A stretch of DNA of 11,835 nucleotides from a virus, in the IMG/VR virus record IMGVR_UViG_3300045988_078946. The stretch is one strand, 5' to 3'. Each line of letters starts with the position of its first letter. The first letter of the stretch is position 1. A model generated the notes under the pieces. It had not been told where the DNA came from and ran no database searches. It saw only the letters and a list, made by a program, of their open reading frames with translations. Position numbers and translations under genes: made by a program. Below, piece by piece: positions 1 to 11,835 of the stretch.

Positions 1-268
1 CATAACACACTTTGGCACGCTTTTTGCTCTGTGCCGCATTTACCATTCTTTAACATATTTAACACTTCATAACACACTTTGGCACGCTTTTTGCTCTGTG
101 CCGCATTTACCATTCTTTAACATATTTAACACTTCATAACACACTTTGGCACGCTTTTTGCTCTGTGCCGCATTTACCATTCTTTAACATATTTAACACT
201 TCATAACACACTTTGGCACGCTTTTTGCTCTGTGCCGCATTTACCATTCTTTAACACATTTAACACAC
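1..268. repeat. Tandem array of four 67-bp direct repeats inside the left ITR
   Basis: The unit cataacacactttggcacgctttttgctctgtgccgcatttaccattctttaacatatttaacactt starts at 1, 68, 135 and 202. Copies 1-3 are identical. Copy 4 has a T>C change at 257 and diverges at 267-268. Each unit contains a short inverted repeat GGCAC-N12-GTGCC (14-18 and 31-35 in copy 1) and phased TAACA motifs. Confidence 0.95.
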
Positions 269-300
269 CGTTAACACTGTTAAACTTTCATAAAAATAAT

Positions 301-378
301 GTTTCACGTGGAACGTTGGTAAATAAATGTTTCACGTGGAACAAAGGGGCAAACAATGAAAACTGTTTCACGTGGAAC
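301..378. promoter_or_regulatory. Cluster of three identical near-palindromic boxes GTTTCACGTGGAAC (candidate operator or origin-protein binding sites)
   Basis: Exact copies at 301-314, 329-342 and 365-378 (centre spacing 28 and 36 bp). Each is preceded by an A-rich tract and (A/C)TG. The core is CACGTG, and the arms are palindromic except for one position (G instead of A) that is the same in all three copies. Confidence 0.7.
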
Positions 379-433
379 AAACAAGTGTTAACAACAGTTA
401 ATTTATTTCTTTAAGACTTTTTAACGAAAATAA

Positions 434-465
434 TTTGGTGGTTTCGCAAAAACGTTGTATCTTTG
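434..465 (+). promoter_or_regulatory. Inward-facing left-arm (early) promoter, Bacteroidota type
   Basis: TTTG at 434-437, a 20-bp spacer, then TATCTTTG at 458-465 (matches the TAnnTTTG -7 element). It lies about 50 nt upstream of the first + strand gene and is repeated in the right ITR and mid-genome with the same architecture. Confidence 0.65.
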
Positions 466-514
466 CACCGTGTTTAAGAAACATATAAGTTTAACAAATT
501 AAATTAGGTAAATT

Positions 515-682
515 ATGAATGAGAATTTTAATGAAACTGTTTTCAACTGTATTACTAGTGTTAACGCTCTTATGACTTCAAACGAAGTCGCAAAAGACGA
601 TAAGGCGGTTATTAAGTTGAACCGCTTTAAGAAGTGGTTGAATGAGTTTGCGGCTGCAAACGGTATGAACGAAGTTAAGTAA
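515..682 (+). CDS. Hypothetical small early protein, 55 aa (below the 60-aa ORF track cut-off)
   Basis: Manual translation from ATG 515 to TAA 680-682 gives MNENFNETVFNCITSVNALMTSNEVAKDDKAVIKLNRFKKWLNEFAAANGMNEVK. It is the first ORF downstream of the ITR promoter and is co-oriented with the operon. The antisense ORFs 499..696 and 578..889 look spurious (F/L/C-rich). Confidence 0.5.
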   Translation: MNENFNETVFNCITSVNALMTSNEVAKDDKAVIKLNRFKKWLNEFAAANGMNEVK

Positions 683-733
683 TAACAGGCGTCCAAAAGA
701 CAACAGAAGTTTAACGTTTAAAGGTTTTAAGTT

Positions 734-1099
734 ATGGCTAAAGGTTTTAGTTTTGCTAGTACTTTTAATAAGACTAGTTTCGGTATTGATACGACCGATT
801 TTCCGTTTGTAAAGTTGACCGATATTTACAACAGTGAGAAAGACGGTGGCGGTGATGTGGTACACCCGATTAACGGTATGTACGTTCACAAATCGCAGTT
901 GGGAGATTCACCTGTAATAATTGACGCAGAAAACAAGCGTTTAGTGAACTTACCACAGTTCACAGGTGACACGGTGCGAGAGATTCTTGCTAATAGTGAA
1001 GCGGTGGACACTATCAAAGCAAACAAAGTTGGTTATACGATTTATGAATATGAATCGCACGCCAAAAAATGTTACGGTATTACCTTTGTAGATAAGTAG
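734..1099 (+). CDS. Hypothetical early protein, 121 aa; possibly a phi29 p5-like ssDNA-binding protein
   Basis: Clean ORF in the early operon, followed by a terminator. Its size and position just upstream of the TP/DNAP pair, plus a weak remembered resemblance of its C-terminal half to phi29 p5 (124 aa), suggest an SSB. This is not verifiable here. Confidence 0.6.
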   Translation: MAKGFSFASTFNKTSFGIDTTDFPFVKLTDIYNSEKDGGGDVVHPINGMYVHKSQLGDSPVIIDAENKRLVNLPQFTGDTVREILANSEAVDTIKANKVGYTIYEYESHAKKCYGITFVDK

Positions 1100-1127
1100 T
1101 TTTCGTAGGTAATGGGTGGATAACGGC

Positions 1128-1174
1128 ACGGGGGTAAACAGTAACTTAGTTTATTGTTGCCCCCGTTTTTGTTT
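1128..1174 (+). terminator. Rho-independent terminator or attenuator after the two small early genes
   Basis: Stem ACGGGGGTAA (1128-1137) pairs with TTGCCCCCGT (1157-1166, one G-U pair). It is followed by TTTTTGTTT. Confidence 0.6.
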
Positions 1175-1194
1175 CATTTAAAAGTGTTGATATT

Positions 1195-1866
1195 ATGGCA
1201 AAGTTAAATCCGATAGGGTTTTCAAAAAGAACGTTTGCAGCAACGGCAAAGATACACGTTGATAAGCAAATATTAGACGCAATAGAATCCCGTGGCTATT
1301 TACGCAAAGAAATCGCCCGTGTGTTTCAACAGGCGAACCGACGCATACAGAATGTGGAAAAATCGGGTTTTGTTTCGCCTGCCGTTGTTGCGTTAAATAA
1401 AGGTGATATTAAAGGATTCACAAAGTTTTCAATGAAACACGATTGGAACGATTTAAAAATTGAATATTCCAAAGCGGTTTCTTTTTTGCAACAACCTACA
1501 TCAACGGCAATTGGTACACGTGAGTATTCAAACCATTTAAAGAAGTCTTACAACTTAGACGATAAAGAATTTAAGTTGATGCAAGACAAATTAATGGGTA
1601 AAATTGCAAGTGTTTCCGATGAAAGATTTTTGGAACAATATTTAATGCAGTACAAAGATTTCACGGGCGAACTAGAACAGGAATCACGGGACGTTAGCGA
1701 CCAAATCGAAGATGATGCGGTTAAAATTGAAAACGCTTTAGATGATGCAATAGAACAAATAGCAAAAGACCCAAATTCAGAGGCTTACGTTAACGGTGTT
1801 AACCATTTCAAAACTGACGAACCTTTGAAAAAGATATTGCAAGAATTTGAAAAATTCGGTTTATAA
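1195..1866 (+). CDS. Candidate terminal protein (TP) for protein-primed replication, 223 aa
   Basis: It lies immediately upstream of the protein-primed DNA polymerase and is translationally coupled to it (TAATG overlap at 1864-1868), as with phi29 genes 3 and 2. It has a basic N-terminal region (ARVFQQANRRIQNVEKSGFV, compare phi29 TP ARLVKNTKAKIARTKKKYGV from memory) and an acidic C-terminal half. The product call is an inference. Confidence 0.6.
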   Translation: MAKLNPIGFSKRTFAATAKIHVDKQILDAIESRGYLRKEIARVFQQANRRIQNVEKSGFVSPAVVALNKGDIKGFTKFSMKHDWNDLKIEYSKAVSFLQQPTSTAIGTREYSNHLKKSYNLDDKEFKLMQDKLMGKIASVSDERFLEQYLMQYKDFTGELEQESRDVSDQIEDDAVKIENALDDAIEQIAKDPNSEAYVNGVNHFKTDEPLKKILQEFEKFGL

Positions 1867-4073
1867 TGAAGAAAATACCCTTTGAACTACATACAGAAGT
1901 TTATACGCCAAAAGATATTGCAAAGGTTTTATCTTTGGCGGTGAACGATAAGAATTTTACAGGAAACAATAAGGGCGAAAAGTTCTTAAACGTTCCTGTA
2001 TCTTTCGATATTGAAACTACATCATTTTACCGTGATGAAGACGGGGAAACATACAGTTACGAACGCTATATGAAATTAGGTGGAAAAGAAACCAAAATGG
2101 AAAAGTGTTCTTTAATGTATGTTTGGCAATTTGGAATAAACGGTTTTTGCATAATTGGGCGTACGTGGGACGAATTTTTGCAAATGTTATCCGAAATAGT
2201 GGATATATTGGAACTTTGCCCAAAGAAACGTATTATTATTTACGTTCACAATTTGGCTTATGAGTTCCAATTTTTCCGTGAGTTGTTGGAATGGGAAAAA
2301 GTTTTCTCTATTGATTTACGCAAACCAATTTACGGAATAACGAAAACAGGTTTAGAGTTCCGATGCAGTTACTTATTATCGGGTTATTCTTTGGCGAAAT
2401 TAGGCGAACAATTACACACATACAAATGTGAAAAGTTAGTTGGCGATTTGGATTATAGTTTGTTACGTCACAGTAAAACCCCGTTGTCACAAAAAGAAAT
2501 TGGTTACTGTCTGAATGATATAAAAGTGGTGATGTGTTACATACAGGAACTATTGGAACGTTACAAAGGAATAACCCGTTTGCCGATTACAAAGACGGGT
2601 TTTGTACGCAAATATTGCCGTTCTGTATGCTTTAAAACAACTGACGAAACAGGCAAAACGATTCCAAACTTTAAATATATTGATAAGATTCATAACTTAA
2701 ATATAACAGGTATGGAAGAATTTGCAATGTTACAACGGGCGTTTTCAGGTGGCTTTACGCACGCCAACGCAAAATACACCGATGAAGTAATTGAGAATGT
2801 AGATAGTTACGATTTTACTAGCAGTTACCCTTATGTTATGGTTTCAGAAAAGTTTCCAATGAGTACGGGCGTAATTGTACCGATAAAGTCAATGAAACAA
2901 TTTGAGTTTATGACTAGCAAATTTTGTTGTGTTTTTGATGTGGAGATAACAAACATATTTGCAAAATCAGAAAACGAAAATCCAATATCGGTTAGTAAAT
3001 GTTTCGTGAAAGAAAACGTTTCCGAGAATAACGGGCGATTGGTTTGCGCAAAGAAAATATGTATGACGATTACCGAAATAGATTACAAAGTGTTTTCACA
3101 GTTTTACACGTGGGAACAAATAAGAATCGGGCGAATGATTTGTTACAGAAAAGAATATTTGCCAACTGAGTTTGTAGAATCTATTTTGCACCTGTATGAG
3201 ATGAAAACAAAACTAAAGGGTGTAAAGGGTAAAGAAGTGGAGTATTTGAATAGCAAAGAAATGCTTAATAGTTGTTACGGTATGTGTGTTACAAATCCGT
3301 TGCGTGATGAAATTTTGTGCGATGGCGAAACGTGGGACGTTGAACACCTTACAGGCGAAAAACAATTAGAAATGCTTAATAAATACAATGATAGTAAAAA
3401 CCGCTTTTTGTTTTACCCGTGGGGTATTTATGTTACCGCCTATGCACGAAGAAACCTGTTTACGGGTATTTCTGAATGTGGGGACGATTACATATATAGT
3501 GATACCGATTCCGTTAAAATTATGAATGGTAATGCACACAAAGACTATTTCAAAGCCTACAACGATTTAGCGCAACAAAAATTACGTGCCGCCTGTAAGT
3601 TTCACAAAATACCCTTTGAAAAGGTTGAACCCGTCACAATAAAGGGAATCTCAAAACCGTTGGGTGTTTGGGATTACGAGGGACGTTACGTCAGGTTTAA
3701 AACTTTAGGCGCAAAACGCTATATGGTGGAAGAAGAAAACGCCCTAACAGTAAACGGCAAAGATTATAATTATTCAATGACCGTTTCGGGCGTTAACAAA
3801 AAATCCGCTATCCCTTATATGTTAGAAACGTTTGGAGAAAGTGGAATCTTTGACGCATTTACAAATTATCTAGATATTCCACCATCGGCAACAGGTAAGA
3901 ATATTCATACATATATTGATTATAAACAAACGGGAACAATAAAAGACTATAGGGGCAACGTTTCAAGTTACGATACGACAACGGGGGTACACTTAGAACC
4001 AACTGGGTACACTTTAAGTCTTTCAGTTCTTTATATAAATTATTTAATGGGAATCAGATTAAAGAAAGAATAA
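1866..4073 (+). CDS. Protein-primed family B DNA polymerase (phi29 gp2-like), 735 aa
   Basis: All canonical motifs are readable. ExoI is FDIETTS, ExoII is VHNLAYEFQF and ExoIII is YCLNDIKVV. Motif A is DFTSSYPYVM, motif B is KEMLNSCYGMCV, motif C is IYSDTDSVK and the KxY motif is GAKRYMV. The genome has ITRs consistent with protein priming. Confidence 0.95.
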   Translation: MKKIPFELHTEVYTPKDIAKVLSLAVNDKNFTGNNKGEKFLNVPVSFDIETTSFYRDEDGETYSYERYMKLGGKETKMEKCSLMYVWQFGINGFCIIGRTWDEFLQMLSEIVDILELCPKKRIIIYVHNLAYEFQFFRELLEWEKVFSIDLRKPIYGITKTGLEFRCSYLLSGYSLAKLGEQLHTYKCEKLVGDLDYSLLRHSKTPLSQKEIGYCLNDIKVVMCYIQELLERYKGITRLPITKTGFVRKYCRSVCFKTTDETGKTIPNFKYIDKIHNLNITGMEEFAMLQRAFSGGFTHANAKYTDEVIENVDSYDFTSSYPYVMVSEKFPMSTGVIVPIKSMKQFEFMTSKFCCVFDVEITNIFAKSENENPISVSKCFVKENVSENNGRLVCAKKICMTITEIDYKVFSQFYTWEQIRIGRMICYRKEYLPTEFVESILHLYEMKTKLKGVKGKEVEYLNSKEMLNSCYGMCVTNPLRDEILCDGETWDVEHLTGEKQLEMLNKYNDSKNRFLFYPWGIYVTAYARRNLFTGISECGDDYIYSDTDSVKIMNGNAHKDYFKAYNDLAQQKLRAACKFHKIPFEKVEPVTIKGISKPLGVWDYEGRYVRFKTLGAKRYMVEEENALTVNGKDYNYSMTVSGVNKKSAIPYMLETFGESGIFDAFTNYLDIPPSATGKNIHTYIDYKQTGTIKDYRGNVSSYDTTTGVHLEPTGYTLSLSVLYINYLMGIRLKKE

Positions 4074-4074
4074 T

Positions 4075-5214
4075 ATGAGACAGAAGAAAGAAAAGGTAGA
4101 AACACCGAAATTTTACACGTTGAATCGCATTTTATCAAAGAATGCCGATTACAATGTAATTTTCGGTGAACGTTCCAACGGTAAGACCTATGCAACGTTA
4201 CTGTATGGAATCAAAGAATATTTGCGCACAGGAAAACAAATGGCTTATATTCGTAGATGGCGTGAAGATTTAAGGGGCAAACGTGCCGAAAGTTTATTCA
4301 GTAATCACGTTGCAAACGGTGTGATACAGGAATTAACAGGCGGTAAGTTTAACGAAGTGTTTTACATTTCGGGTAAATGGTTTCTTTCGTCTTACGACCC
4401 CGAAACCAAAAAACGTGTACCCGATAACACACCGTTCTGTTTCGGGTTTTGTCTTTCAGAACAGGAACACGAAAAATCTAGCAGTTACCCAAACATAACT
4501 ACAATAGTTTTCGACGAGTTCCTAACTAGACGTTACTATTTGCCCGATGAATTTATGTTATATATGAACCTATTGAGTACAATTATCAGACAGAGAAACG
4601 ATGTTAAAGTTTTTATGTTAGGTAATACAGTGAATCAATTTTGCCCGTATTTCTCAGAAATGGGATTGAAACAGGTGCGAATGATGGAACAGGGAACTAT
4701 TGATATTTACCGTTTCGGTGAGCACGGGGCAACGGTTGCAGTAGAATATTGCAGTACGATTGTTAAACATAAGGCTAGCAACAAATACTTTTGTTTTGAC
4801 AATGAAAATTTGCAAATGATTACGGGCGGTAAATGGGAACTTGCAGCATATCCGCACCTACCTGTAAAATACAAACCGAATGACGTGTTATTTGTCTTCT
4901 ATATTCAGTTTAACGAAATTACCTTACAGGGCAACGTAATACAGATTGAGGACAAAGAAAACGGGGTGAATAACTTTATTTATATCCACAACAAAACAAC
5001 CCCGATAAAGGACACAGACAACAGTTTGATATATTCTTTGCAAATGAACGGCAAACCAAACTACAAACGAAAGTTGCTGAGTACTGCAACCTATCTAGAA
5101 TCACAGATAACTAGATATTTTGCAACCGATAAGGTATTTTATCAAAATAACGAAATTGGCGAAATTGTGCGCAATTACTTGATGACAAGTGCAAGAAGTA
5201 ACATTATTACTTAA
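4075..5214 (+). CDS. DNA encapsidation (packaging) ATPase, phi29 gp16-like, 379 aa
   Basis: Walker A is GERSNGKT. YIRRWRED matches phi29 YVRRYKPE. SSSYPNITTIVFDEF (Walker B) matches phi29 SNAYPNVSTIVFDEF, and LGNTVNQFCPYF matches phi29 LSNAVSVVNPYF (phi29 sequence recalled from memory). Confidence 0.9.
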   Translation: MRQKKEKVETPKFYTLNRILSKNADYNVIFGERSNGKTYATLLYGIKEYLRTGKQMAYIRRWREDLRGKRAESLFSNHVANGVIQELTGGKFNEVFYISGKWFLSSYDPETKKRVPDNTPFCFGFCLSEQEHEKSSSYPNITTIVFDEFLTRRYYLPDEFMLYMNLLSTIIRQRNDVKVFMLGNTVNQFCPYFSEMGLKQVRMMEQGTIDIYRFGEHGATVAVEYCSTIVKHKASNKYFCFDNENLQMITGGKWELAAYPHLPVKYKPNDVLFVFYIQFNEITLQGNVIQIEDKENGVNNFIYIHNKTTPIKDTDNSLIYSLQMNGKPNYKRKLLSTATYLESQITRYFATDKVFYQNNEIGEIVRNYLMTSARSNIIT

Positions 5215-5223
5215 TATCTGTTA

Positions 5224-5272
5224 ACGGGGGTTAAAAATGTTTCACGTGAAACACTTTTCCCCCGTTTTATTT
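5224..5272 (+). terminator. Rho-independent terminator of the left (early) operon; its stem contains the CACGTG palindrome
   Basis: ACGGGGG (5224-5230) pairs with CCCCCGT (5259-5265). The inner stem is formed by AAAATGTTTCAC/GTGAAACACTTTT. It is followed by TTTTATTT and sits 10 nt after the ATPase stop. Confidence 0.75.
5238..5253. promoter_or_regulatory. Perfect 16-bp palindrome TGTTTCACGTGAAACA (candidate high-affinity operator for the same factor as the ITR boxes)
   Basis: The sequence is its own reverse complement. It differs from the ITR boxes only at the position that breaks their symmetry (A here, G there). It lies 16 bp upstream of the -33 TTTG of the late promoter. Confidence 0.7.
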
Positions 5273-5301
5273 GGTGATACCAAATAATTTTCCTATCTTT
5301 G
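5270..5301 (+). promoter_or_regulatory. Late (structural operon) promoter, Bacteroidota type
   Basis: TTTG at 5270-5273, a 20-bp spacer, then TATCTTTG at 5294-5301. It shares the TTTGGTG...TATCTTTGCA architecture and spacer length with the two ITR promoters. Confidence 0.65.
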
Positions 5302-5333
5302 CAGCATCAAATAACAAAATTAAAATTTGCTAT

Positions 5334-5528
5334 ATGGACGTAAACGCAATTATATCATTAATTAGTAACGTTGGTTTTCCTGTTGCGGTTTGTGTCGCCC
5401 TTTTCTTCTATATGGAGAAACAGAACGAACGCCATCAAAACGAAACCGACAAGTTAAATGAAACCGTACAAAGTAACACTAAAGTGTTGACAGAACTTTG
5501 TACATTAATTAAAACTCTTGTTAAATAA
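5334..5528 (+). CDS. Small single-TM membrane protein, YvrJ-like, 64 aa; holin candidate
   Basis: Translation from ATG 5334 gives MDVNAIISLISNVGFPVAVCVALFFYMEKQNE..., one hydrophobic helix followed by a charged helical tail. The ISNVGFP(V/I)AV motif resembles the YvrJ family (from memory). The track ORF start at 5271 is rejected because it overlaps the promoter. The stop overlaps the portal start (TAATG). Confidence 0.7.
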   Translation: MDVNAIISLISNVGFPVAVCVALFFYMEKQNERHQNETDKLNETVQSNTKVLTELCTLIKTLVK

Positions 5529-6595
5529 TGGAGAAAGAAAACTTATATAATAGGTATCAAACAGAAGTTAAAAACAAAGATTCTGCATTATTCACATTTA
5601 TGCAACGTGTTCTTTGTATGACTTCAAAGATGTTTGAGTACACGGGTACACCCGAAACAATGCCCCCTGTAGAACTTGAAAAGATTCTGCAAACATCGGG
5701 TAACGTTGGTATCGCAAAAGTAAACGGGGGACTGTATGCTTTACAGGGTACACGGGGCGGTGAATGTGATGCGTATTATCACGGCAAAGATTACGTGGTT
5801 GCGAACCCGTGGTTAAATTTGAACAAAACGTTTAAAATCGATTCCGATATTGTCATTATCAACAATACACCGTTTGCAGATTCACTTTTGCCAATAATCG
5901 GCAAATATGGTGTACTTTACACCGATGCGACAATAACACTTAATTTGGCTAGCATTTTAACACGTATCACTATGTTAATTTCTGCTAGTGACGATAAAAC
6001 CAAACAAAGCGCAGAATCTTTCTTGCAGAAGATTTTAAACGGTGATTTCTCAGTAATCGGTGAAAATGCCTTTTTCAAAGGTGTTAACTTACAAACACCA
6101 CCGACACAGGGAAACCAACAAATAGGGCAATTAATTGAACTTTTGCAGTACTATAAGGCTTCAATGTTCAACGATTTAGGTTTGAATGCAAACTATAATA
6201 TGAAACGTGAACGATTGAACACGCAAGAGGTTTCAATGAATATAGACGCTTTAATGCCGTTCGTTGATTCAATGTTAACAGAACGTGTCGAGGGTGTGAA
6301 ACGTGTTAACGAAATGTTTGGTACGGATATTACGGTAACGTTGGGGTCTAGTTGGAAGATTGAGCACGAAAATTATTTGTCGTTACTCAAAGCCACAGAA
6401 GAGGGACACGAACACACCGAAACGGAAGACGTTGACTCAGTAAAGGAAAACGAAACAGAAGAAACGCAAGAAACAGAAGAAACAGAAACAGAAACAGAAG
6501 AAACAGAAGAAACAGAAGAAACGGAAACAGAAACAGAAGAAAATGAAGAAACAGAAGAAACAGAAGAAAAAGAAGAGAAAGAAGATGAAAATTAA
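5528..6595 (+). CDS. Portal / head-tail connector protein, phi29 gp10-like, 355 aa, with an acidic E/T-repeat C-terminal tail
   Basis: [30 protein letters not shown] matches phi29 gp10 [50 protein letters not shown] matches [36 protein letters not shown] matches CEKINELYGLNVKVKF (phi29 sequence from memory). Confidence 0.9.
   Translation: [355 protein letters not shown]
6446..6592. repeat. Purine-rich coding microsatellite (GAAACA / GAAGAAACA units) at the 3' end of the portal gene
   Basis: gaaacagaagaaacgcaagaaacagaagaaacagaaacagaaacagaagaaacagaagaaacagaagaaacggaaacagaaacagaagaaaatgaagaaacagaagaaacagaagaaaaagaagagaaagaagatgaaaat. It translates as [47 protein letters not shown]. Confidence 0.9.
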
Positions 6596-7154
6596 CGAAC
6601 TTTTCACGGGTGAAAATGGTTTGTTTGAAAAAATCTTTGCGCCCCTGTTTCCTGTTTTGTACAAATCAATTTTCGGGGACGATGAACCGAAAGTAATTGA
6701 TATTGATTTACGTTTCAAATATGGAAACAGAACTCTAGTTGATGCAGTCACAAACGAAACTGCAACCGATATTGTTAAAAGCATTATCACGGTGAAGTTT
6801 GATGAATGGCAAAAACAGATTCAAGTGTTTAATAATGAATATGATGTGTTGAACCCTGTAACGTCAAAGACAACGGAAACAACAAATAATACCGTTGACG
6901 AAACAGGCAATAACAACACCATCGATTCAAGTGTAACTTTTAATGATGGAGATTTTGGCAATGACACAAAGCAGCAAAGAGATTCCACAGGAAACCGACA
7001 AGAAACGGGCACGAAAACAGTTGTTAGAAACGGTGTTCCATCTAGCGTTCCTACTAGCGAAATTATTCAAAAAGAAATGAATCTCAGAAAAACCAACTTT
7101 AAAACACAGGTGGTAACAGAGATTGTAAAAGAAATTAGTTTAGATATTTATTAA
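6585..7154 (+). CDS. Virion structural protein of unknown role, 190 aa (203 aa if started at 6543); lower collar/adaptor or scaffold candidate
   Basis: The ORF lies between the portal and major capsid genes. ATG 6585 overlaps the portal stop by 11 nt. The upstream ATG 6543 would add MKKQKKQKKKKRKK, read from the portal repeat in another frame. The central T/N/S/G-rich segment (about aa 90-165) flanked by helical ends could form a long beta-hairpin like the phi29 gp11 tube, but that is speculative. Confidence 0.75.
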   Translation: MKINELFTGENGLFEKIFAPLFPVLYKSIFGDDEPKVIDIDLRFKYGNRTLVDAVTNETATDIVKSIITVKFDEWQKQIQVFNNEYDVLNPVTSKTTETTNNTVDETGNNNTIDSSVTFNDGDFGNDTKQQRDSTGNRQETGTKTVVRNGVPSSVPTSEIIQKEMNLRKTNFKTQVVTEIVKEISLDIY

Positions 7155-7173
7155 TTCTTAAATTTTATATAAA

Positions 7174-8358
7174 ATGGAAGTAAAGCAAATTTATACGCTT
7201 ATTAATAGCGTTTCATCTGAGGTTTTGGGTAAAACCGATTTGGTACACGAAGACCTCACAGGTATCGTTGATTTGGGTAATGAGGTATTTAATCAGAATG
7301 CCGTTGACAATTACGTTAAATCACTTGTAAACCATATCGGTAAGGTGGTTTTCGTGAACCGTCCATATTCGGGTAAAGTTCCATCTATCCTTATGGATGC
7401 GTGGGAATTTGGTAGCGTATTGGAGAAAATCAGCGCAGATGTTCCACAGGCTGAAGAAAACGATACCTGGAATCTCACAGACGGTAAAGAGTACAAACAG
7501 GACGTGTTCCACAAACCAACGGTTTCTGCTAAGTTCTTCAACTCAAAGGTGACTTTTGAAGTTCCTGTATCTATCACAGAAAGACAGGTAAAGGAATCTT
7601 TCAGCAGCTCAGAACAATTGAACGGTTTCCTGTCAATGATTTATTCAGCAGTTGAAAAGTCAATGACTATCAAGACCGATGCGCTTGTTATGCGTACTAT
7701 TAACAATATGATTGCGGAAACTTTGGACGCAGACAAGACATCTTTTGGTTTCGTACCGTCAACACACGAAAAAGTTGACTATGCGAGTGCATCAACAGTT
7801 CGTTGTGTGAACCTGTTGAAACTTTACAACGAAAAGACGGGTGCGGCTTTGACTGCAAACGTAGCAGTAACAACCCCAGACTTTATTCGTTTCGCTGCAT
7901 ATATGATGGGTTTGTATGCAGACAGATTGCAGACAATTTCAACCCTGTTTAACGTTGGCGGTAAGGAACGTTTCACACCGAAAGACGTTTTGCATACCGT
8001 TCTGTTGTCCGATTTCGCAACAGCAGCAAAGACATACCTATATGCCGACACGTTCCATAATGAGAACGTTTTGTTACCACAGGCGGAAACCGTGGCAAGT
8101 TGGCAGGCAACGGGCAAAGATTACGCTTTTGACAACGTTTCAAAGATTGATGTAAAATCTGCTAGCGGTGCAAACGTTTCCATCGGTGGCGTATTGGGTG
8201 TTATGTTTGACCGTGACGCTTTAGGTGTTACCAATTTGGATAAGCGAGTAACGACCAACTACAACGCCAAAGCAGAATTTTTCAACAATTACTTCAAATT
8301 CGATGCCGGCTACTTCAACGACACAAACGAAAACTTTGTTGTGTTCTTTGTCGCCTAA
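7174..8358 (+). CDS. Major capsid protein, phi29 gp8-like (HK97 fold), 394 aa
   Basis: Its N-terminal region AVDNYVKSLVNHIGKVVFVNRP...GSVLEKISADV parallels phi29 gp8 [21 protein letters not shown]...GRTIEEIYTDI (from memory). It is the largest late ORF after the portal and is followed by a strong terminator, as is typical of highly expressed capsid genes. Confidence 0.85.
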   Translation: MEVKQIYTLINSVSSEVLGKTDLVHEDLTGIVDLGNEVFNQNAVDNYVKSLVNHIGKVVFVNRPYSGKVPSILMDAWEFGSVLEKISADVPQAEENDTWNLTDGKEYKQDVFHKPTVSAKFFNSKVTFEVPVSITERQVKESFSSSEQLNGFLSMIYSAVEKSMTIKTDALVMRTINNMIAETLDADKTSFGFVPSTHEKVDYASASTVRCVNLLKLYNEKTGAALTANVAVTTPDFIRFAAYMMGLYADRLQTISTLFNVGGKERFTPKDVLHTVLLSDFATAAKTYLYADTFHNENVLLPQAETVASWQATGKDYAFDNVSKIDVKSASGANVSIGGVLGVMFDRDALGVTNLDKRVTTNYNAKAEFFNNYFKFDAGYFNDTNENFVVFFVA

Positions 8359-8376
8359 TTTGGTTGTTTAACTGTT

Positions 8377-8421
8377 GGGGTGTGTTTCCTGTAGTTGATA
8401 GAACAGGGGCACACCCTTTTT
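8377..8421 (+). terminator. Rho-independent terminator after the capsid gene
   Basis: GGGTGTG (8378-8384) pairs with CACACCC (8410-8416), with an inner stem CCTGT/ACAGG, followed by TTTTT (8417-8421). Confidence 0.75.
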
Positions 8422-8434
8422 AACTTTTTGCGGT

Positions 8435-8878
8435 ATGATTAAAATTAAAACTTTCGTTTACAACGGCAAACCAAACGAAGTAAACAAGACTTTACAGGCA
8501 AACGAAGAGTACACGGGCGTATTGAATGCAACGTTTAATGTTTTAACGCCTGTTGTACGTTTCAGAACTCGCACGCCTGTAACTTTCAATTACGTTTACA
8601 TCGAAAGTTTGAACCGTTATTATTTTGTTTCTGAGAAACAACAAGACGGTGATATTTGCACAGTTCGTTTGCGTGTTGACGTTCTGTTTACTTATAAGGA
8701 TATTATCTTAAACAGTACTGCAACGTTAACAAAAAGTGAAAACGGTAACAAATATCTTTCAAACCGTACAAACGTGGTGGACGTTCGCCCGAATATCAGA
8801 AAACTAGATTTTCCGAATAAAGGGTTGTTGAACGAAACAGGTAGTATTATTATGGTAACTATTAAAGGTAACGTTTAA
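8435..8878 (+). CDS. Tail protein resembling the N-terminal domain of the phi29 gp9 tail knob, 147 aa
   Basis: FNYVYIESLNRYYFVSEKQQDGDICTVRLRVDVLFTY parallels phi29 gp9 [43 protein letters not shown] (from memory). It sits directly upstream of the large tail gene. Confidence 0.7.
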   Translation: MIKIKTFVYNGKPNEVNKTLQANEEYTGVLNATFNVLTPVVRFRTRTPVTFNYVYIESLNRYYFVSEKQQDGDICTVRLRVDVLFTYKDIILNSTATLTKSENGNKYLSNRTNVVDVRPNIRKLDFPNKGLLNETGSIIMVTIKGNV

Positions 8879-8880
8879 TT

Positions 8881-10413
8881 ATGGCAAATTTATTAACTTA
8901 CGATACATCGGATTTTACGGGTGACGTTACAATTACCGACAAACAGGGAACGGACGCACACCATTTTATTGTAACAGTAACGGGAAACGGTGACGGTACG
9001 TTTACCGATTTAAAAGCTAGTTATCAAAATTGGGACGGTGATTGGGTTGCAGATACCCCGTTTAACGTTTCGGGCAACGTTGGTACACTCACGGTTTATT
9101 GCTCTAGAGGTGACGAAATTTCTATAACAGGTAAATTTATTTCGGGTGTAAAGGAACTGCAAATAACTAACAATATCACAAACACAACTGCAAAAGCTGA
9201 TGCAAGTGAAACAAATTACACCGTAACCGTTACAGGAACAGCACAGGGAATGTTTAACGGAACGCCTACAATAACATATGGTGGCGAAACTTACGAAATG
9301 ACCGTAATAAACCAAACTGCAACAATTATTGTGCCTATTGCAACCGAATCGGTTATTATAAACGGTGAATATTTGTTAGGTGATTTTATTGAAGTTGATT
9401 ACAGTTTAACAAATTGTGAAATTGTTGGTGATAAGCCCGTAAAGGTAAAAACGGGGCAAAGTTACACGTTTAATTTCAAAGCGAACACGAATGCAGAATT
9501 AACAGAGATACAGGCAAATTTCATAAACGATTCGGGCGACACTATTATAAGTAACGGCACGATTTCGGAAAATAAGCAAACGGGCACAGTAACGATTAAT
9601 TTAACATCGGGTGCGTCACAGTTTACAGTTTATGCAAATGCCGATGTAGTGCAACCGCCAACGATTAAAAATTACGGTGCAATAAATGTTTATATTGTTA
9701 CGTTGGAAAATTTGGACGAATTTTCAAAGAAACGTTTCTTTAAACCAACGGGCGAAAATGACACGGGCACAACTTATTCTGAGGTTAATTTGGGTACTTA
9801 TGTAAACCGTATCAAAAGAATATTTGCAACCGTTCCTGTAGGCGGTGACGATGTTTTGAAATGCGGTAACCACAACACGGGGATAAATGTTAAATATCCC
9901 GATAGTGATGTTATGTTACTAGATTTCGGCAACGTTGAACTAACAGGGGCAAACGGTAACAATGAAGACTTTAACGCACAGATACAAATGTTTATCCCAT
10001 GCCGTGGCGTTGTTTCTATTGATAGTAATTACATCGGAAAAACGGTTAATTTGTCTATCAAAGTTAACGTGATTACAGGTGATGCAGTGGCTTTGCTGTC
10101 GTGCGATGGTGTAACGTTCCAAATTGAAAGTTTTTCTTTGTCACGTGATGTTATTTACCGTTTGGGCACAGATTTAAACGTTGTTGGCGGTGAACAATGG
10201 AACGAACAAATTTTGTACGGTTTAGAACCTTACGTTTTGATTACTGAAAATTTAACCGTAAACGTTCCTGTTAACAACACACAGGAAAACGTGACAGTTA
10301 AAGACGTTACAGGGTTTGCACAGTTTGAAAACGTGAATTTGAACGCTGCAAATTTGTTGGTTGACGAGTACAACGATATTATAAATCAGTTGGAAACAGG
10401 CGTTTATTTATAA
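8881..10413 (+). CDS. Tail knob / receptor-binding tail protein, 510 aa; three N-terminal beta-sandwich-like repeats plus a gp9-like C-terminal domain
   Basis: The N-terminal ~255 aa contain three ~80-aa T/N/G-rich modules with recurring signatures (FIVTVTGNGDGTF, YTVTVTGTAQGMF, TGTVTINLTSGASQF). In the C-terminal half, IQMFIPCRGVVSIDSNYIGKTVNLSIKVNVITGDA resembles phi29 gp9 [40 protein letters not shown] (from memory). It is the last gene of the late operon. Confidence 0.75.
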   Translation: MANLLTYDTSDFTGDVTITDKQGTDAHHFIVTVTGNGDGTFTDLKASYQNWDGDWVADTPFNVSGNVGTLTVYCSRGDEISITGKFISGVKELQITNNITNTTAKADASETNYTVTVTGTAQGMFNGTPTITYGGETYEMTVINQTATIIVPIATESVIINGEYLLGDFIEVDYSLTNCEIVGDKPVKVKTGQSYTFNFKANTNAELTEIQANFINDSGDTIISNGTISENKQTGTVTINLTSGASQFTVYANADVVQPPTIKNYGAINVYIVTLENLDEFSKKRFFKPTGENDTGTTYSEVNLGTYVNRIKRIFATVPVGGDDVLKCGNHNTGINVKYPDSDVMLLDFGNVELTGANGNNEDFNAQIQMFIPCRGVVSIDSNYIGKTVNLSIKVNVITGDAVALLSCDGVTFQIESFSLSRDVIYRLGTDLNVVGGEQWNEQILYGLEPYVLITENLTVNVPVNNTQENVTVKDVTGFAQFENVNLNAANLLVDEYNDIINQLETGVYL

Positions 10414-10420
10414 AAGAAAT

Positions 10421-10442
10421 AGGCGGTAAATTGTTACCGCCT
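10421..10442. terminator. Bidirectional rho-independent terminator between the convergent late and right-arm operons
   Basis: AGGCGGTAA (10421-10429) pairs with TTACCGCCT (10434-10442) around a 4-nt loop. The + strand has T-rich GTTTTCTTATTTTTT downstream, and the - strand transcript has T-rich ATTTCTTTT downstream. Confidence 0.8.
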
Positions 10443-10448
10443 GTTTTC

Positions 10449-10697
10449 TTATTTTTTATTAGTAAATTCGTAGGCTAGATTTTTGCTATAAATAAAATCC
10501 AAAGCACGGTTTTTCTTTGCCGTTTCTTCATCAAGTTTGCACGAAATAGTTTTTATTACTAAGGTTTGCGCCTTTAGTGTATCAATAACAGAATTTAATA
10601 ACATACCGTTTGTACCTGTTGTGTTTTCTGCTATGTACTGCAAATTTACTGTTGAAACTTTAATTGACTTCAACAAAATTTTTATTGCTTTATCCAT
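10449..10697 (-). CDS. Hypothetical protein, 82 aa, predicted mostly helical, no TM segment
   Basis: The ORF starts 2 nt after the endolysin stop and is the last gene before the bidirectional terminator. I recognise no motif. Confidence 0.6.
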   Translation of the reverse strand: MDKAIKILLKSIKVSTVNLQYIAENTTGTNGMLLNSVIDTLKAQTLVIKTISCKLDEETAKKNRALDFIYSKNLAYEFTNKK

Positions 10698-10699
10698 AA

Positions 10700-11125
10700 C
10701 TATTTCTTTTCCAAATTCATTATAATTTGGTTACGGGGTTTACCGTTACGTGGACAAACTGAAACGTGAAACCAAAATGAGTTCGTGAAACCTTTGCGGT
10801 GTTCTTTAATAAGTTGGTCGAAACCGCCTGTTTCTCTCAGAACCTTTTCTAAAGATTCCATATCAGCACAAACCAAATCAGCGGCTAAACCTTTTTGGTG
10901 TTGACTGTTAACAACACCCCCAACTGCTTTATTTAACATCGGGCAACGATACCCACTACTAACTAAGATAGGTTTACCCAACTTTGCACGAATGCCGTCT
11001 AAATAATCAGCCAAACGATTCAAGTTGTCAACTATTTCAAACGTTGGTGTATTATCAATGCCCAAACGTTTTGCGGTTGCTGAGTTGATGAACTCGGACA
11101 ATTTAAAATACTTAATTCTTTTCAT
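10700..11125 (-). CDS. Endolysin, Peptidase_M15_3 (zinc D-Ala-D-Ala carboxypeptidase-like / L-Ala-D-Glu peptidase fold), 141 aa
   Basis: Family signature FKLSEFINSATAKRLGIDNTP...SSGYRCPMLNKAVGGVVNSQHQKGLAADL with the H-x6-D zinc ligands, plus a distal His in FWFHVS. There is no signal peptide or TM segment. Confidence 0.88.
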   Translation of the reverse strand: MKRIKYFKLSEFINSATAKRLGIDNTPTFEIVDNLNRLADYLDGIRAKLGKPILVSSGYRCPMLNKAVGGVVNSQHQKGLAADLVCADMESLEKVLRETGGFDQLIKEHRKGFTNSFWFHVSVCPRNGKPRNQIIMNLEKK

Positions 11126-11130
11126 ATCAC

Positions 11131-11334
11131 TTATTTATTTTCTTTTGGTGTAATAATAAACCACTTGCGAGAATCTTTGTGCGTTGGAAAACGCCCCTTT
11201 ACAGTTATTGAACAATCGCCCTGTAAGTAATCAATCTTATTATTAAAGAACTCGCTTACTTTGTCAGAACGTACCATAAAAACCGTAACTTTGTCGTCTT
11301 GTTTTAATGTGATTCTAAAATATGAATGTTCCAT
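11131..11334 (-). CDS. Hypothetical protein, 67 aa, first gene of the right-arm operon
   Basis: It is the first ORF downstream of the right ITR promoter (leader about 30 nt) and lies 5 nt upstream of the endolysin gene. I recognise no motif. Confidence 0.6.
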   Translation of the reverse strand: MEHSYFRITLKQDDKVTVFMVRSDKVSEFFNNKIDYLQGDCSITVKGRFPTHKDSRKWFIITPKENK

Positions 11335-11370
11335 AATCTTTATAATTTAATTGTTTCTTAATTTCTGCTG

Positions 11371-11402
11371 CAAAGATATAACGTTTTTGCGAAACCACCA
11401 AA
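11371..11402 (-). promoter_or_regulatory. Inward-facing right-arm promoter (ITR copy of the left early promoter)
   Basis: On the - strand: TTTG (11399-11402), a 20-bp spacer, then TATCTTTG (11371-11378). It differs from the left copy only at the base just 5' of the -7 element (11379). Confidence 0.65.
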
Positions 11403-11457
11403 TTATTTTCGTTAAAAAGTCTTAAAGAAATAAATTAACTGTTGTTAACACTTGTTT

Positions 11458-11535
11458 GTTCCACGTGAAACAGTTTTCATTGTTTGCCCCTTTGTTCCAC
11501 GTGAAACATTTATTTACCAACGTTCCACGTGAAAC
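11458..11535. promoter_or_regulatory. Mirror cluster of three GTTCCACGTGAAAC boxes in the right ITR
   Basis: Exact copies at 11458-11471, 11494-11507 and 11522-11535, which are the reverse complements of the left ITR boxes. Confidence 0.7.
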
Positions 11536-11567
11536 ATTATTTTTATGAAAGTTTAACAGTGTTAACG

Positions 11568-11835
11568 GTGTGTTAAATGTGTTAAAGAATGGTAAATGCG
11601 GCACAGAGCAAAAAGCGTGCCAAAGTGTGTTATGAAGTGTTAAATATGTTAAAGAATGGTAAATGCGGCACAGAGCAAAAAGCGTGCCAAAGTGTGTTAT
11701 GAAGTGTTAAATATGTTAAAGAATGGTAAATGCGGCACAGAGCAAAAAGCGTGCCAAAGTGTGTTATGAAGTGTTAAATATGTTAAAGAATGGTAAATGC
11801 GGCACAGAGCAAAAAGCGTGCCAAAGTGTGTTATG
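11568..11835. repeat. Tandem array of four 67-bp direct repeats inside the right ITR (mirror of 1-268)
   Basis: Reverse complement of the left array, read directly in lines 11581-11835. Confidence 0.95.

Follow-up and report, generated by a model that had tools for sequence, protein, structure and literature searches.

Gene content, expression signals and DNA ends of a small phi29-like podophage genome from the human gut with a probable Bacteroidota host

The DNA analysed here, hereafter the window, is a stretch of 11,835 nucleotides (11.8 kb) from the IMG/VR virus record IMGVR_UViG_3300045988_078946. It has a GC content of 37% and holds 14 open reading frames (ORFs) that make up 88% of its length, 11 on the plus strand (g01-g11; 515-10413) and three on the minus strand (g12-g14; 10449-11334), while a tRNA scan of the window found none. 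An inverted terminal repeat (ITR) bounds it, with the left arm (1-467, plus strand) pairing with the right arm (11369-11835, minus strand). Very probably the window is the essentially complete genome, a linear dsDNA molecule, of a phi29-like podophage that has not been cultured, comes from a human gut metagenome and belongs to a lineage related to Astrithrvirus. This estimate covers the whole explanation set out below, namely genome and lineage together with the proposed steps of replication, transcription, regulation, host and completeness. A first-pass annotation, made from the letters of the window, had already recognised a linear, protein-primed, phi29-like mini-podophage with a minimal set of about 14 genes, and both the genes and the ITR support that identification.

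Gene content, relatives and lifestyle

Relatives were sought by tblastn against 50,697 phage records, 23 of which were matched by the major capsid protein (MCP). The top matches were the Salmonella phages named Astrid, astrithr and assan (11.6-11.7 kb), Acinetobacter phage Phanie (11.9 kb), Enterobacter phage Entb_47, Pectobacterium phage DU_PP_III, Vibrio phage K58 g2 (10.4 kb) and a Shigella phage. Identities of this Astrithrvirus group to the window are 41-46% for the family B DNA polymerase (PolB), 51-53% for the packaging ATPase and 56-59% for MCP (24-59% for proteins overall), and g03-g11 are collinear with and homologous to the genes of Astrid (11.7 kb) and Phanie (11.9 kb). Megablast of the whole window against the phage records gave no match, which places it outside the genus Astrithrvirus, where about 70% nucleotide similarity is needed. 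In metagenomes there are more than 8000 MCP homologues; the best 120 show 90-94% identity, and their contigs, from human and pig gut, cluster in length at 11.4-12.4 kb. Relatives with 90-94% MCP identity number in the thousands in such gut assemblies and are nearly all free-standing contigs of about 12 kb, in keeping with a stand-alone replicon. A review of phi29-like phages from Gram-negative bacteria (Evseev et al., 2024; PMC11476376) gives them small genomes, a short lower collar and a two-gene knob, and neither fibre nor spike genes. In Table S1 of that review, MCP cluster 23 holds Astrid together with OP072986 (contig L011, 92% MCP identity) and human-gut genomes of 11-14 kb, of which there are more than 200.

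The window is a new, divergent member of this catalogued lineage (MCP cluster 23), outside the genus Astrithrvirus. The first-pass annotation had presented it as a notable outlier in size; the same small design is found in Astrid, Phanie and more than 200 catalogued gut genomes. The minimal phi29-like design is published, relatives from the clade are present in GenBank, IMG/VR and the 2024 census, and the suggested novelty does not hold given that close relatives with the same architecture have already been described (PMC11476376). The genome itself adds little. The modest additions made here are a probable Bacteroidota host, the placing of the clade's termini to the single base and a palindrome conserved close to the promoters.

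Profile matches underlie the identification of the polymerase, ATPase, portal, capsid and endolysin genes. On the plus strand, g04 (1866..4073) encodes a protein-primed PolB, matched by Pfam DNA_pol_B_2 (9.9e-15) and phrog_1907 (5e-70), with phi29 DNA polymerase as its sole PDB match (4.8e-8). The aligned motifs YxxND, DxxSxYP, KxxxNSxYG and YxDTDS correspond to ExoIII and to polymerase motifs A, B and C. It is followed by g05 (4075..5214, plus strand), a gp16-type DNA packaging ATPase (Podovirus_Gp16, 1.5e-23; phrog_2150, 5e-34); the Pfam matches of g05, g07 and g09 all exceed the gathering scores. Directly 5' of g04, and overlapping its start, lies the candidate terminal protein gene g03 (1195..1866, plus strand; 223 aa), whose product would prime the polymerase at both genome ends. 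It has 26-30% identity to Astrid ORF002 and Phanie gp2, which are considered the counterpart of p3 (PMC11476376).

Two results weigh against this picture. First, hhalign detected no similarity between g03 and phi29 p3, and the g03 family gave no meaningful match in Pfam or the PDB, so the terminal protein function is proposed from synteny and the literature on relatives. Second, phi29 packaging requires a packaging RNA (pRNA), and the Rfam search gave no pRNA at E<=1, with two chance-level hits only. Nor was any non-coding stretch seen that is conserved, suitably sized and equipped with a promoter of its own, although pRNAs diverge fast and this does not demonstrate absence. Among close relatives, identity is 66-88% for g03 and 90-97% for the adjacent g04.

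The structural genes follow on the plus strand. The MCP is encoded by g09 (7174..8358), which matches Pfam Phi29_MCP at 2.2e-53 and is 58-59% identical to its homologues in Astrid and Phanie. The connector, or portal, of gp10 type is g07 (5528..6595; Phage_connector, 6e-15; phrog_2038, 5.6e-36). Its C-terminus is an acidic, T/E-rich tail of about 50 residues that arises from degenerate 9-nt repeats (GAAGAAACA; 6430-6608), and connector length among close relatives ranges over 323-368 aa, apparently via this repeat tract. One idea is that the tail stands in for the missing scaffold or acts as a DNA mimic. Upstream of it, g06 (5334..5528; 64 aa) encodes a single-transmembrane (TM) holin-like protein (phrog_4898 holin, 1.6e-8; Holin_BhlA, weak) homologous to Phanie gp5 and Astrid ORF005.

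Between connector and capsid lies g08 (6582..7154; about 190 aa), which is probably a short lower collar, a label taken from the review (PMC11476376) and from synteny, as g08 follows the connector in the way that gp11 follows gp10 in phi29. A g08 family profile built without Astrid and Phanie matched Astrid ORF007 (6.8e-10) and Phanie gp7 (2.2e-10). The AF2 (AlphaFold2) model is of low confidence (pLDDT 49) and shows helices and one long beta-hairpin; g08 had no PDB match, its model had no Foldseek match, and hhalign against phi29 gp11 was not significant.

The tail knob is split over two genes, g10 and g11, which correspond to the gp9-like tail pieces of the first-pass annotation and were confirmed by family-profile matches. 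The product of g10 (8435..8878; 147 aa) resembles the N-terminal region of the knob: its family profile matched 4eo2 'major tail protein' (1.7e-4), 5fb4 phi29 gp9 'distal tube protein' (0.016) and 8egs 'major tail protein' (0.05), in each case within the N-terminal 50-165 residues of the chain, and hhalign against phi29 gp9 gave E = 2e-4. The product of g11 (8881..10413; 510 aa) comprises three Ig-like domains (residues 1-256) and a conserved C-terminal knob domain (about 243-510). In the AF2 model residues 1-256 form three beta-sandwich domains (pLDDT about 90), for which Foldseek returned tandem Ig/FnIII arrays; a Pfam scan of g11 homologues found the Flg_new_2 B-repeat in five of 12, and scans of other family members gave only noise. 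A profile of the C-terminal domain, again built without the two cultured phages, matched Astrid ORF010 (99.3%, 4e-20) and Phanie gp10 (98%, 3e-13) in their C-terminal parts, and the g11 family showed no significant hhalign match to phi29 gp9. The most variable gene of the genome is g11, with family lengths of about 510, 600, 700 and 800 aa, of which the window has the shortest (510 aa). These lengths look as if Ig-like domains of about 95-100 aa had been gained or lost (homologues P0121-P0240), and the N-terminal part is the least conserved region between genomes that are otherwise 90% identical.

Pfam and PHROG profile searches of the window's proteins found no scaffold, appendage, spike or tail-associated hydrolase gene, as the first-pass annotation had remarked, and no fibre gene, and this trait is common to the group. 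It bears on lifestyle. One reading, unlikely though not negligible, is that the phage is a satellite that stays non-infectious until its knob docks on an unrelated helper myophage at the latter's contractile tail; such a reading agrees with the genome described above and departs from it in lifestyle only. Helper docking would explain the lack of fibre, spike and tail-lysin genes; profile searches of the window found no receptor-binding or tail-hydrolase gene, and g10 and g11 are homologous to gp9 and gp10 of Phanie, with its split knob and lateral Ig-like domains. Phanie, among the closest cultured relatives, is non-infectious unless bound to the tail of helper myophage Aci01-1 (Pourcel et al., 2024, as relayed in PMC11476376) and, as far as that account goes, is the only member of the group tested for helper dependence. 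The review also suggests that other Gram-negative phi29-like phages may likewise use a helper (PMC11476376). However, Astrid has the same architecture and is described as a non-satellite (bioRxiv 10.1101/2025.06.18.659913), g11 carries three Ig-like domains where Phanie has six, with an N-terminal part that is hypervariable between strains, a pattern typical of a direct receptor-binding protein, and the satellite reading comes without an identified helper. The variability of g11 looks like direct receptor adaptation, and is still compatible with helper docking. If the satellite reading were true, one of the commonest tiny gut 'phages', from a clade that occurs in thousands of assemblies of human and pig gut, would be helper-dependent, and the interpretation of such tiny gut phages would change.

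The remaining genes lie towards the two ends. On the minus strand, g13 (10700..11125) encodes an M15 peptidase endolysin (Peptidase_M15_3, 3.8e-21; phrog_894 endolysin, 9e-35; PDB 1lbu, 4e-4), flanked by g12 (10449..10697; 82 aa) and g14 (11131..11334; 67 aa). On the plus strand at the left end are g01 (515..682; 55 aa) and g02 (734..1099; 121 aa), a putative early gene. Profile searches with g01, g12 and g14 gave no informative match, and these genes have no assigned function. The same applies to g02, which had no Pfam, PHROG or PDB match, no significant hhalign result against phi29 p5 and no relation to the right-arm proteins of Astrid and Phanie; that it is a DNA-binding protein or single-stranded DNA-binding protein (SSB) is only a guess. 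An exact copy of the g01 protein is present in 3250 blocks of an assembly collection, 759 of which hold contigs of 10-20 kb and none a contig above 20 kb.

Promoters, candidate operators and the probable host

A sigma-70 promoter scan of the window showed no excess over shuffles, and the Bacteroidota consensus was therefore tested. In Bacteroidota the sigma-A-type promoter consensus is TTTG-N19-21-TAnnTTTG (-33 TTTG, -7 TAnnTTTG), and weak use of Shine-Dalgarno (SD) sites is a further trait of this phylum. The window holds three matches to the consensus against 0.62 expected, a number reached by one of 200 shuffles. All three are intergenic and correctly oriented, one heading each gene block. 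The first (434..465, plus strand; TTTG-N20-TATCTTTG) precedes the left block g01-g05, the second (5270..5301, plus strand) precedes the structural block g06-g11, and the third (11371..11402, minus strand), which is the ITR copy of the first with one base different, precedes the right block g14-g12. In gut relatives the three sites recur at matching places wherever the contig covers the region, and they are absent from Astrid and Phanie. Furthermore, SD sites were found at none of the window's 11 ORFs of at least 100 aa, compared with 9/13 in Astrid, 8/11 in Phanie and 14/19 in phi29.

These promoters are accompanied by a palindrome. The motif GTTTCACGTGRAAC has 14 matches over both strands against 0.46 expected, with three copies upstream of each ITR promoter and a single perfect one that lies upstream of the central promoter at a distance of 17 nt, and it is conserved in relatives in one to three copies. 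In the left arm the copies (GTTTCACGTGGAAC) lie at 301-314, 329-342 and 365-378, mirrored within 11458-11535. The ITR palindromes sit upstream of their promoters, where transcription is not expected to reach them, and a role at the DNA level is preferred for them. The preferred reading is that GTTTCACGTGRAAC palindromes are candidate operators at which one dimeric regulator would bind upstream of all three promoters, loosely like the p4 sites of phi29.

The central perfect palindrome (5239-5252) also forms the upper stem of a terminator-like hairpin at the end of the left block (5223..5274, plus strand; -20.6 kcal/mol, z = -3.3), which continues into the U-tract UUUUAUUU. A bidirectional intrinsic terminator is predicted by a terminator scan between the convergent blocks (10416..10447), and transcription would end at these two places. 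A further hairpin with a U-tract lies between the capsid and knob genes (8377..8430, plus strand; -22 to -23.5 kcal/mol, z = -2.2) and may act as an attenuator that sets the ratio of capsid to tail protein. Taken together, the signals suggest three operons, each under a Bacteroidota-type promoter. The near-identical ITR pair would drive g01-g05, for replication and the packaging ATPase, and g14-g12, which includes the M15 endolysin; the central promoter would drive g06-g11, for the holin-like protein, connector, short lower collar, capsid and split tail knob.

The host is probably a member of the Bacteroidota, since three Bacteroidota-type promoters stand at the operon heads and SD sites are lacking. 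Among 27 relatives compared, all eight with promoter matches have few or no SD sites, and the rest are SD-rich and lack such promoters, whatever bin of metagenome-assembled genomes (MAGs) they fall in; the exceptions are L082 and L083, which have neither trait. This split into two classes suggests switches of host phylum within the family. The call would give a concrete host hypothesis for a very prevalent, never-cultured gut phage, and would move part of cluster 23 to the Bacteroidota.

Two points weigh against it: it is drawn from expression signals in the sequence, and the two closest MAG-binned relatives (93% and 92% MCP identity) fall in Melainabacteria/Gastranaerophilales bins. The alternative is another low-GC gut diderm as host, such as Gastranaerophilales (Melainabacteria), as the bins of those two genome-collection relatives would have it, or a Proteobacterium, as for Astrid and Phanie, given that all cultured relatives infect Proteobacteria. 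However, the MAG bins of the relatives (L066-L103) range over Melainabacteria, Prevotella, Clostridia, Omnitrophota and Elusimicrobia, and 11-14 kb contigs of this family occur even in a Methanobrevibacter bin (Table S1, PMC11476376). Bin taxonomy was rejected as host evidence because the bins span many unrelated phyla, and a spread from Prevotella to Methanobrevibacter points to composition-driven mis-binning of free 12-kb contigs. The promoter matches, by contrast, stand exactly at the operon heads and SD sites are wholly absent, a pair of traits of which the Proteobacterial relatives have neither; the very high prevalence (exact g01 in 3250 blocks) also fits an abundant host group. A host outside the Bacteroidota is unlikely.

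A proposal that joins the Bacteroidota host to the satellite lifestyle is improbable to a similar degree. It would make the clade a branch, adapted to Bacteroidota, of the smallest tailed phages known, a tail-borrowing satellite like Phanie with the conserved CACGTG palindromes as its switch. If it were true, the palindromes at the three promoters would sense the helper or the phage's own regulator.

Terminal repeats and physical DNA ends

The inverted repeat of about 467 bp reported by the first-pass annotation was verified base by base: the two arms are identical at 466 of 467 positions, with one mismatch at 457, and identity drops sharply from 468. The outer 268 nt of each arm consist of four 67-bp tandem units (1..268, plus strand, mirrored at 11568-11835), defined by periodicity and by alignment with relatives. 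Copies 1-3 are identical and copy 4 diverges at its inner end; in the alignment, this fourth unit is the counterpart of the single or double unit of relatives. The period-67 run is 189 nt long in the window and at most 40 in the 40 relatives compared. Each unit has a short inverted repeat, GGCAC-N12-GTGCC, at its positions 12-35 (e.g., GGCACGCTTTTTGCTCTGTGCC), which is highly conserved in relatives and could be a site for a replication or end-binding protein.

The right end differs from that of many close relatives, which carry an extra, well-conserved gene of 108-110 aa between the right ITR promoter and g14 (L003 11421-11747; L011 11379-11705; L012 11605-11937). The window (11335-11420) and the identical contig L009 are without it, and in the window the ITR promoter abuts g14 directly. 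The window's ITR is also 467 nt long against the usual 170-250, owing to extra units and to an extension through the palindromes and promoter. The missing 108-aa gene and the long ITR together fit an event in which a copy of one end took the place of the other.

The clade's physical ends can be read from public assemblies. About 25 IMG/VR contigs (11.4-12.7 kb) carry the 17-mer 5'-AAAGGTACAC at most 4 nt from one or both ends. In five IMG/VR contigs of relatives (L030, L048, L055, L044 and L107) the 17-mer is directly abutted by ...GTGACTGGAGTTCAGACGTGTGCTCTTCCGATCT, which we take to be Illumina TruSeq adapter. Such a junction marks a natural DNA end at that base, so the termini of the clade are fixed at single-base resolution, which is useful for the study of its protein-primed origin. 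The adapter stretch makes up the first 13-48 nt of the five contigs, and is found at both ends where an ITR is present; it is contamination left untrimmed in a public catalogue that incidentally marks the natural end. Longer viral contigs that hold this terminal 17-mer were set aside as chance matches, having no phage genes. The AAAGGTACAC ends are an A-run like the AAAGTA of phi29 and would suit a sliding-back start of replication. Inwards from the end, the relatives' left ends show a conserved block of about 55 nt, AAAGGTACACAAGGCAC...TTTAACAGTTGC, and then the unit TAACACACTTTGGCACGC..., which is the counterpart of the fourth unit of the window. In L107 the terminal block is followed by two tandem units, an arrangement which indicates that unit duplication occurs inside the terminal block.

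The window has no terminal AAAGGTACAC block. Because this block is absent, the window starts in phase with the 67-bp unit and the period-67 run is unique among the 40 relatives compared, the window likely stops within the 67-bp array and is missing at least about 55 nt on either side. Its coding completeness is unaffected by this. Thus, of the first-pass claim of an apparently complete genome, the coding content and the linear, ITR-bounded form stand, and the ends probably each lack at least about 55 nt. Some caution attaches to this account of the ends, as the window's own outermost bases are placed by reference to relatives and its number of 67-bp copies could be an assembly product: three identical units form a cycle in the assembly graph, so that short reads cannot count them. 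An exact look-up of an ORF inside the ITR, and of the window-specific unit junction, in IMG/VR and JGI metagenomes gave no match.

The interior of the window is solid, since an independent ENA assembly (L009; sample SAMN05414930, whose record name points to the LiuW 2016 human gut cohort) matches 402-11434 at 100% identity, as does a Logan contig of SRR3992998 over 6493-10155; L009 and L010, assembled independently, are identical. That the inverted ends are an assembly artefact, or that the element is a circle, an integrated copy or a segment of some larger replicon, is highly improbable. In favour of it, De Bruijn assemblers collapse inverted repeats, which in itself yields symmetric ends of perfect identity, the three identical 67-bp units make a graph cycle in which short reads cannot settle the copy number, and one relative's 20-kb contig (L003) runs on into Bacteroides DNA. 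Against it, more than 25 relatives have ITRs of 166-419 bp, adapter-ligated natural ends in relatives prove linear molecules, and L009 ends symmetrically, 66 nt into each ITR arm, as a true inverted repeat predicts. The L003 junction lies within about 1 nt of the phage terminus and cuts a Bacteroides gene short, as is typical of a chimera formed at a free end, and none of the 3250 blocks that hold g01 has a contig above 20 kb. The circular, larger-replicon or chimeric forms that the first-pass annotation had named as alternatives are likewise not borne out by L009 and the adapter-marked ends of relatives.

Contig L003 itself (ENA ERZ27310421 k141_31118, 20,354 bp) joins a relative's terminus, with one extra A, to Bacteroides (uniformis-like) chromosomal DNA. 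In the region concerned (11370-18081) the Bacteroides side carries topoisomerase IV and GH43/SASA genes, and a DUF3316 gene interrupted by the join keeps 224 of its 338 aa. Integration was rejected as an explanation, since a join at the terminus together with a truncated Bacteroides gene points to a chimera made by assembly or ligation at the free end of a linear molecule. Contig L022 has a foreign extension of 85 nt at the same terminal base, and others have short extensions there.

Comparison with known phages

Uncultured relatives from human and pig gut (among them OP072986.1 'Bacteriophage sp.' and contigs from IMG/VR, ENA and Logan) have 82-89% nucleotide identity to the window over most of the genome and carry 14-16 genes. 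They share its promoters and palindromes, and their ITRs are present but vary in length, identity and unit number, with one or two 67-bp units against four in the window.

At the next level, the Astrithrvirus group shares with the window an order of nine genes: terminal protein candidate, PolB, gp16 ATPase, small TM protein, connector, short lower-collar homologue, MCP, the N-terminal knob part, and the C-terminal knob part with Ig-like domains. Its members also have ITRs, genomes of 10.4-11.9 kb and small opposite-strand genes at the right end. In contrast to the window, with its M15 peptidase in the right-arm operon, they have a CHAP/amidase gene after the knob gene, and Astrid and Phanie have SD-bearing genes where the window lacks SD sites and has Bacteroidota-type promoters. 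The ITRs of the group (84 bp in Astrid and 171 bp in Phanie) are shorter than that of the window, which carries 67-bp tandem units and palindromic operator candidates. Genes g01, g02, g12 and g14 are unrelated to those of the group.

Mycoplasma phage P1 (Dybvigvirus), which the first-pass annotation had chosen as comparator, is of similar size, protein-primed and equipped with long ITRs. Dybvigvirus is among the phi29-related genera of the review (PMC11476376). No Mycoplasma phage was among the 23 MCP-matched phage records or among the PolB matches listed; P1 is much more distant from the window than Astrithrvirus, and the Astrithrvirus group is the right comparison.

Compared with phi29, the window is smaller (11.8 kb against 19.3 kb) and has an ITR of hundreds of bp in place of 6 bp. 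The scaffold, head fibre, appendage (gp12), gp13 and pRNA of phi29 were not detected in the window, its knob is encoded in two genes, its lower collar is shorter and its candidate terminal protein is not detectably similar. Nevertheless, the two share a protein-primed PolB with the same catalytic motifs and homologues of gp16, gp10, gp8 and gp9. They also agree in layout, with putative early genes at both ends, putative late genes in the centre and a bidirectional terminator. Phi29 is linear with A-run ends, and the ends of the window's relatives likewise start with an A-run.

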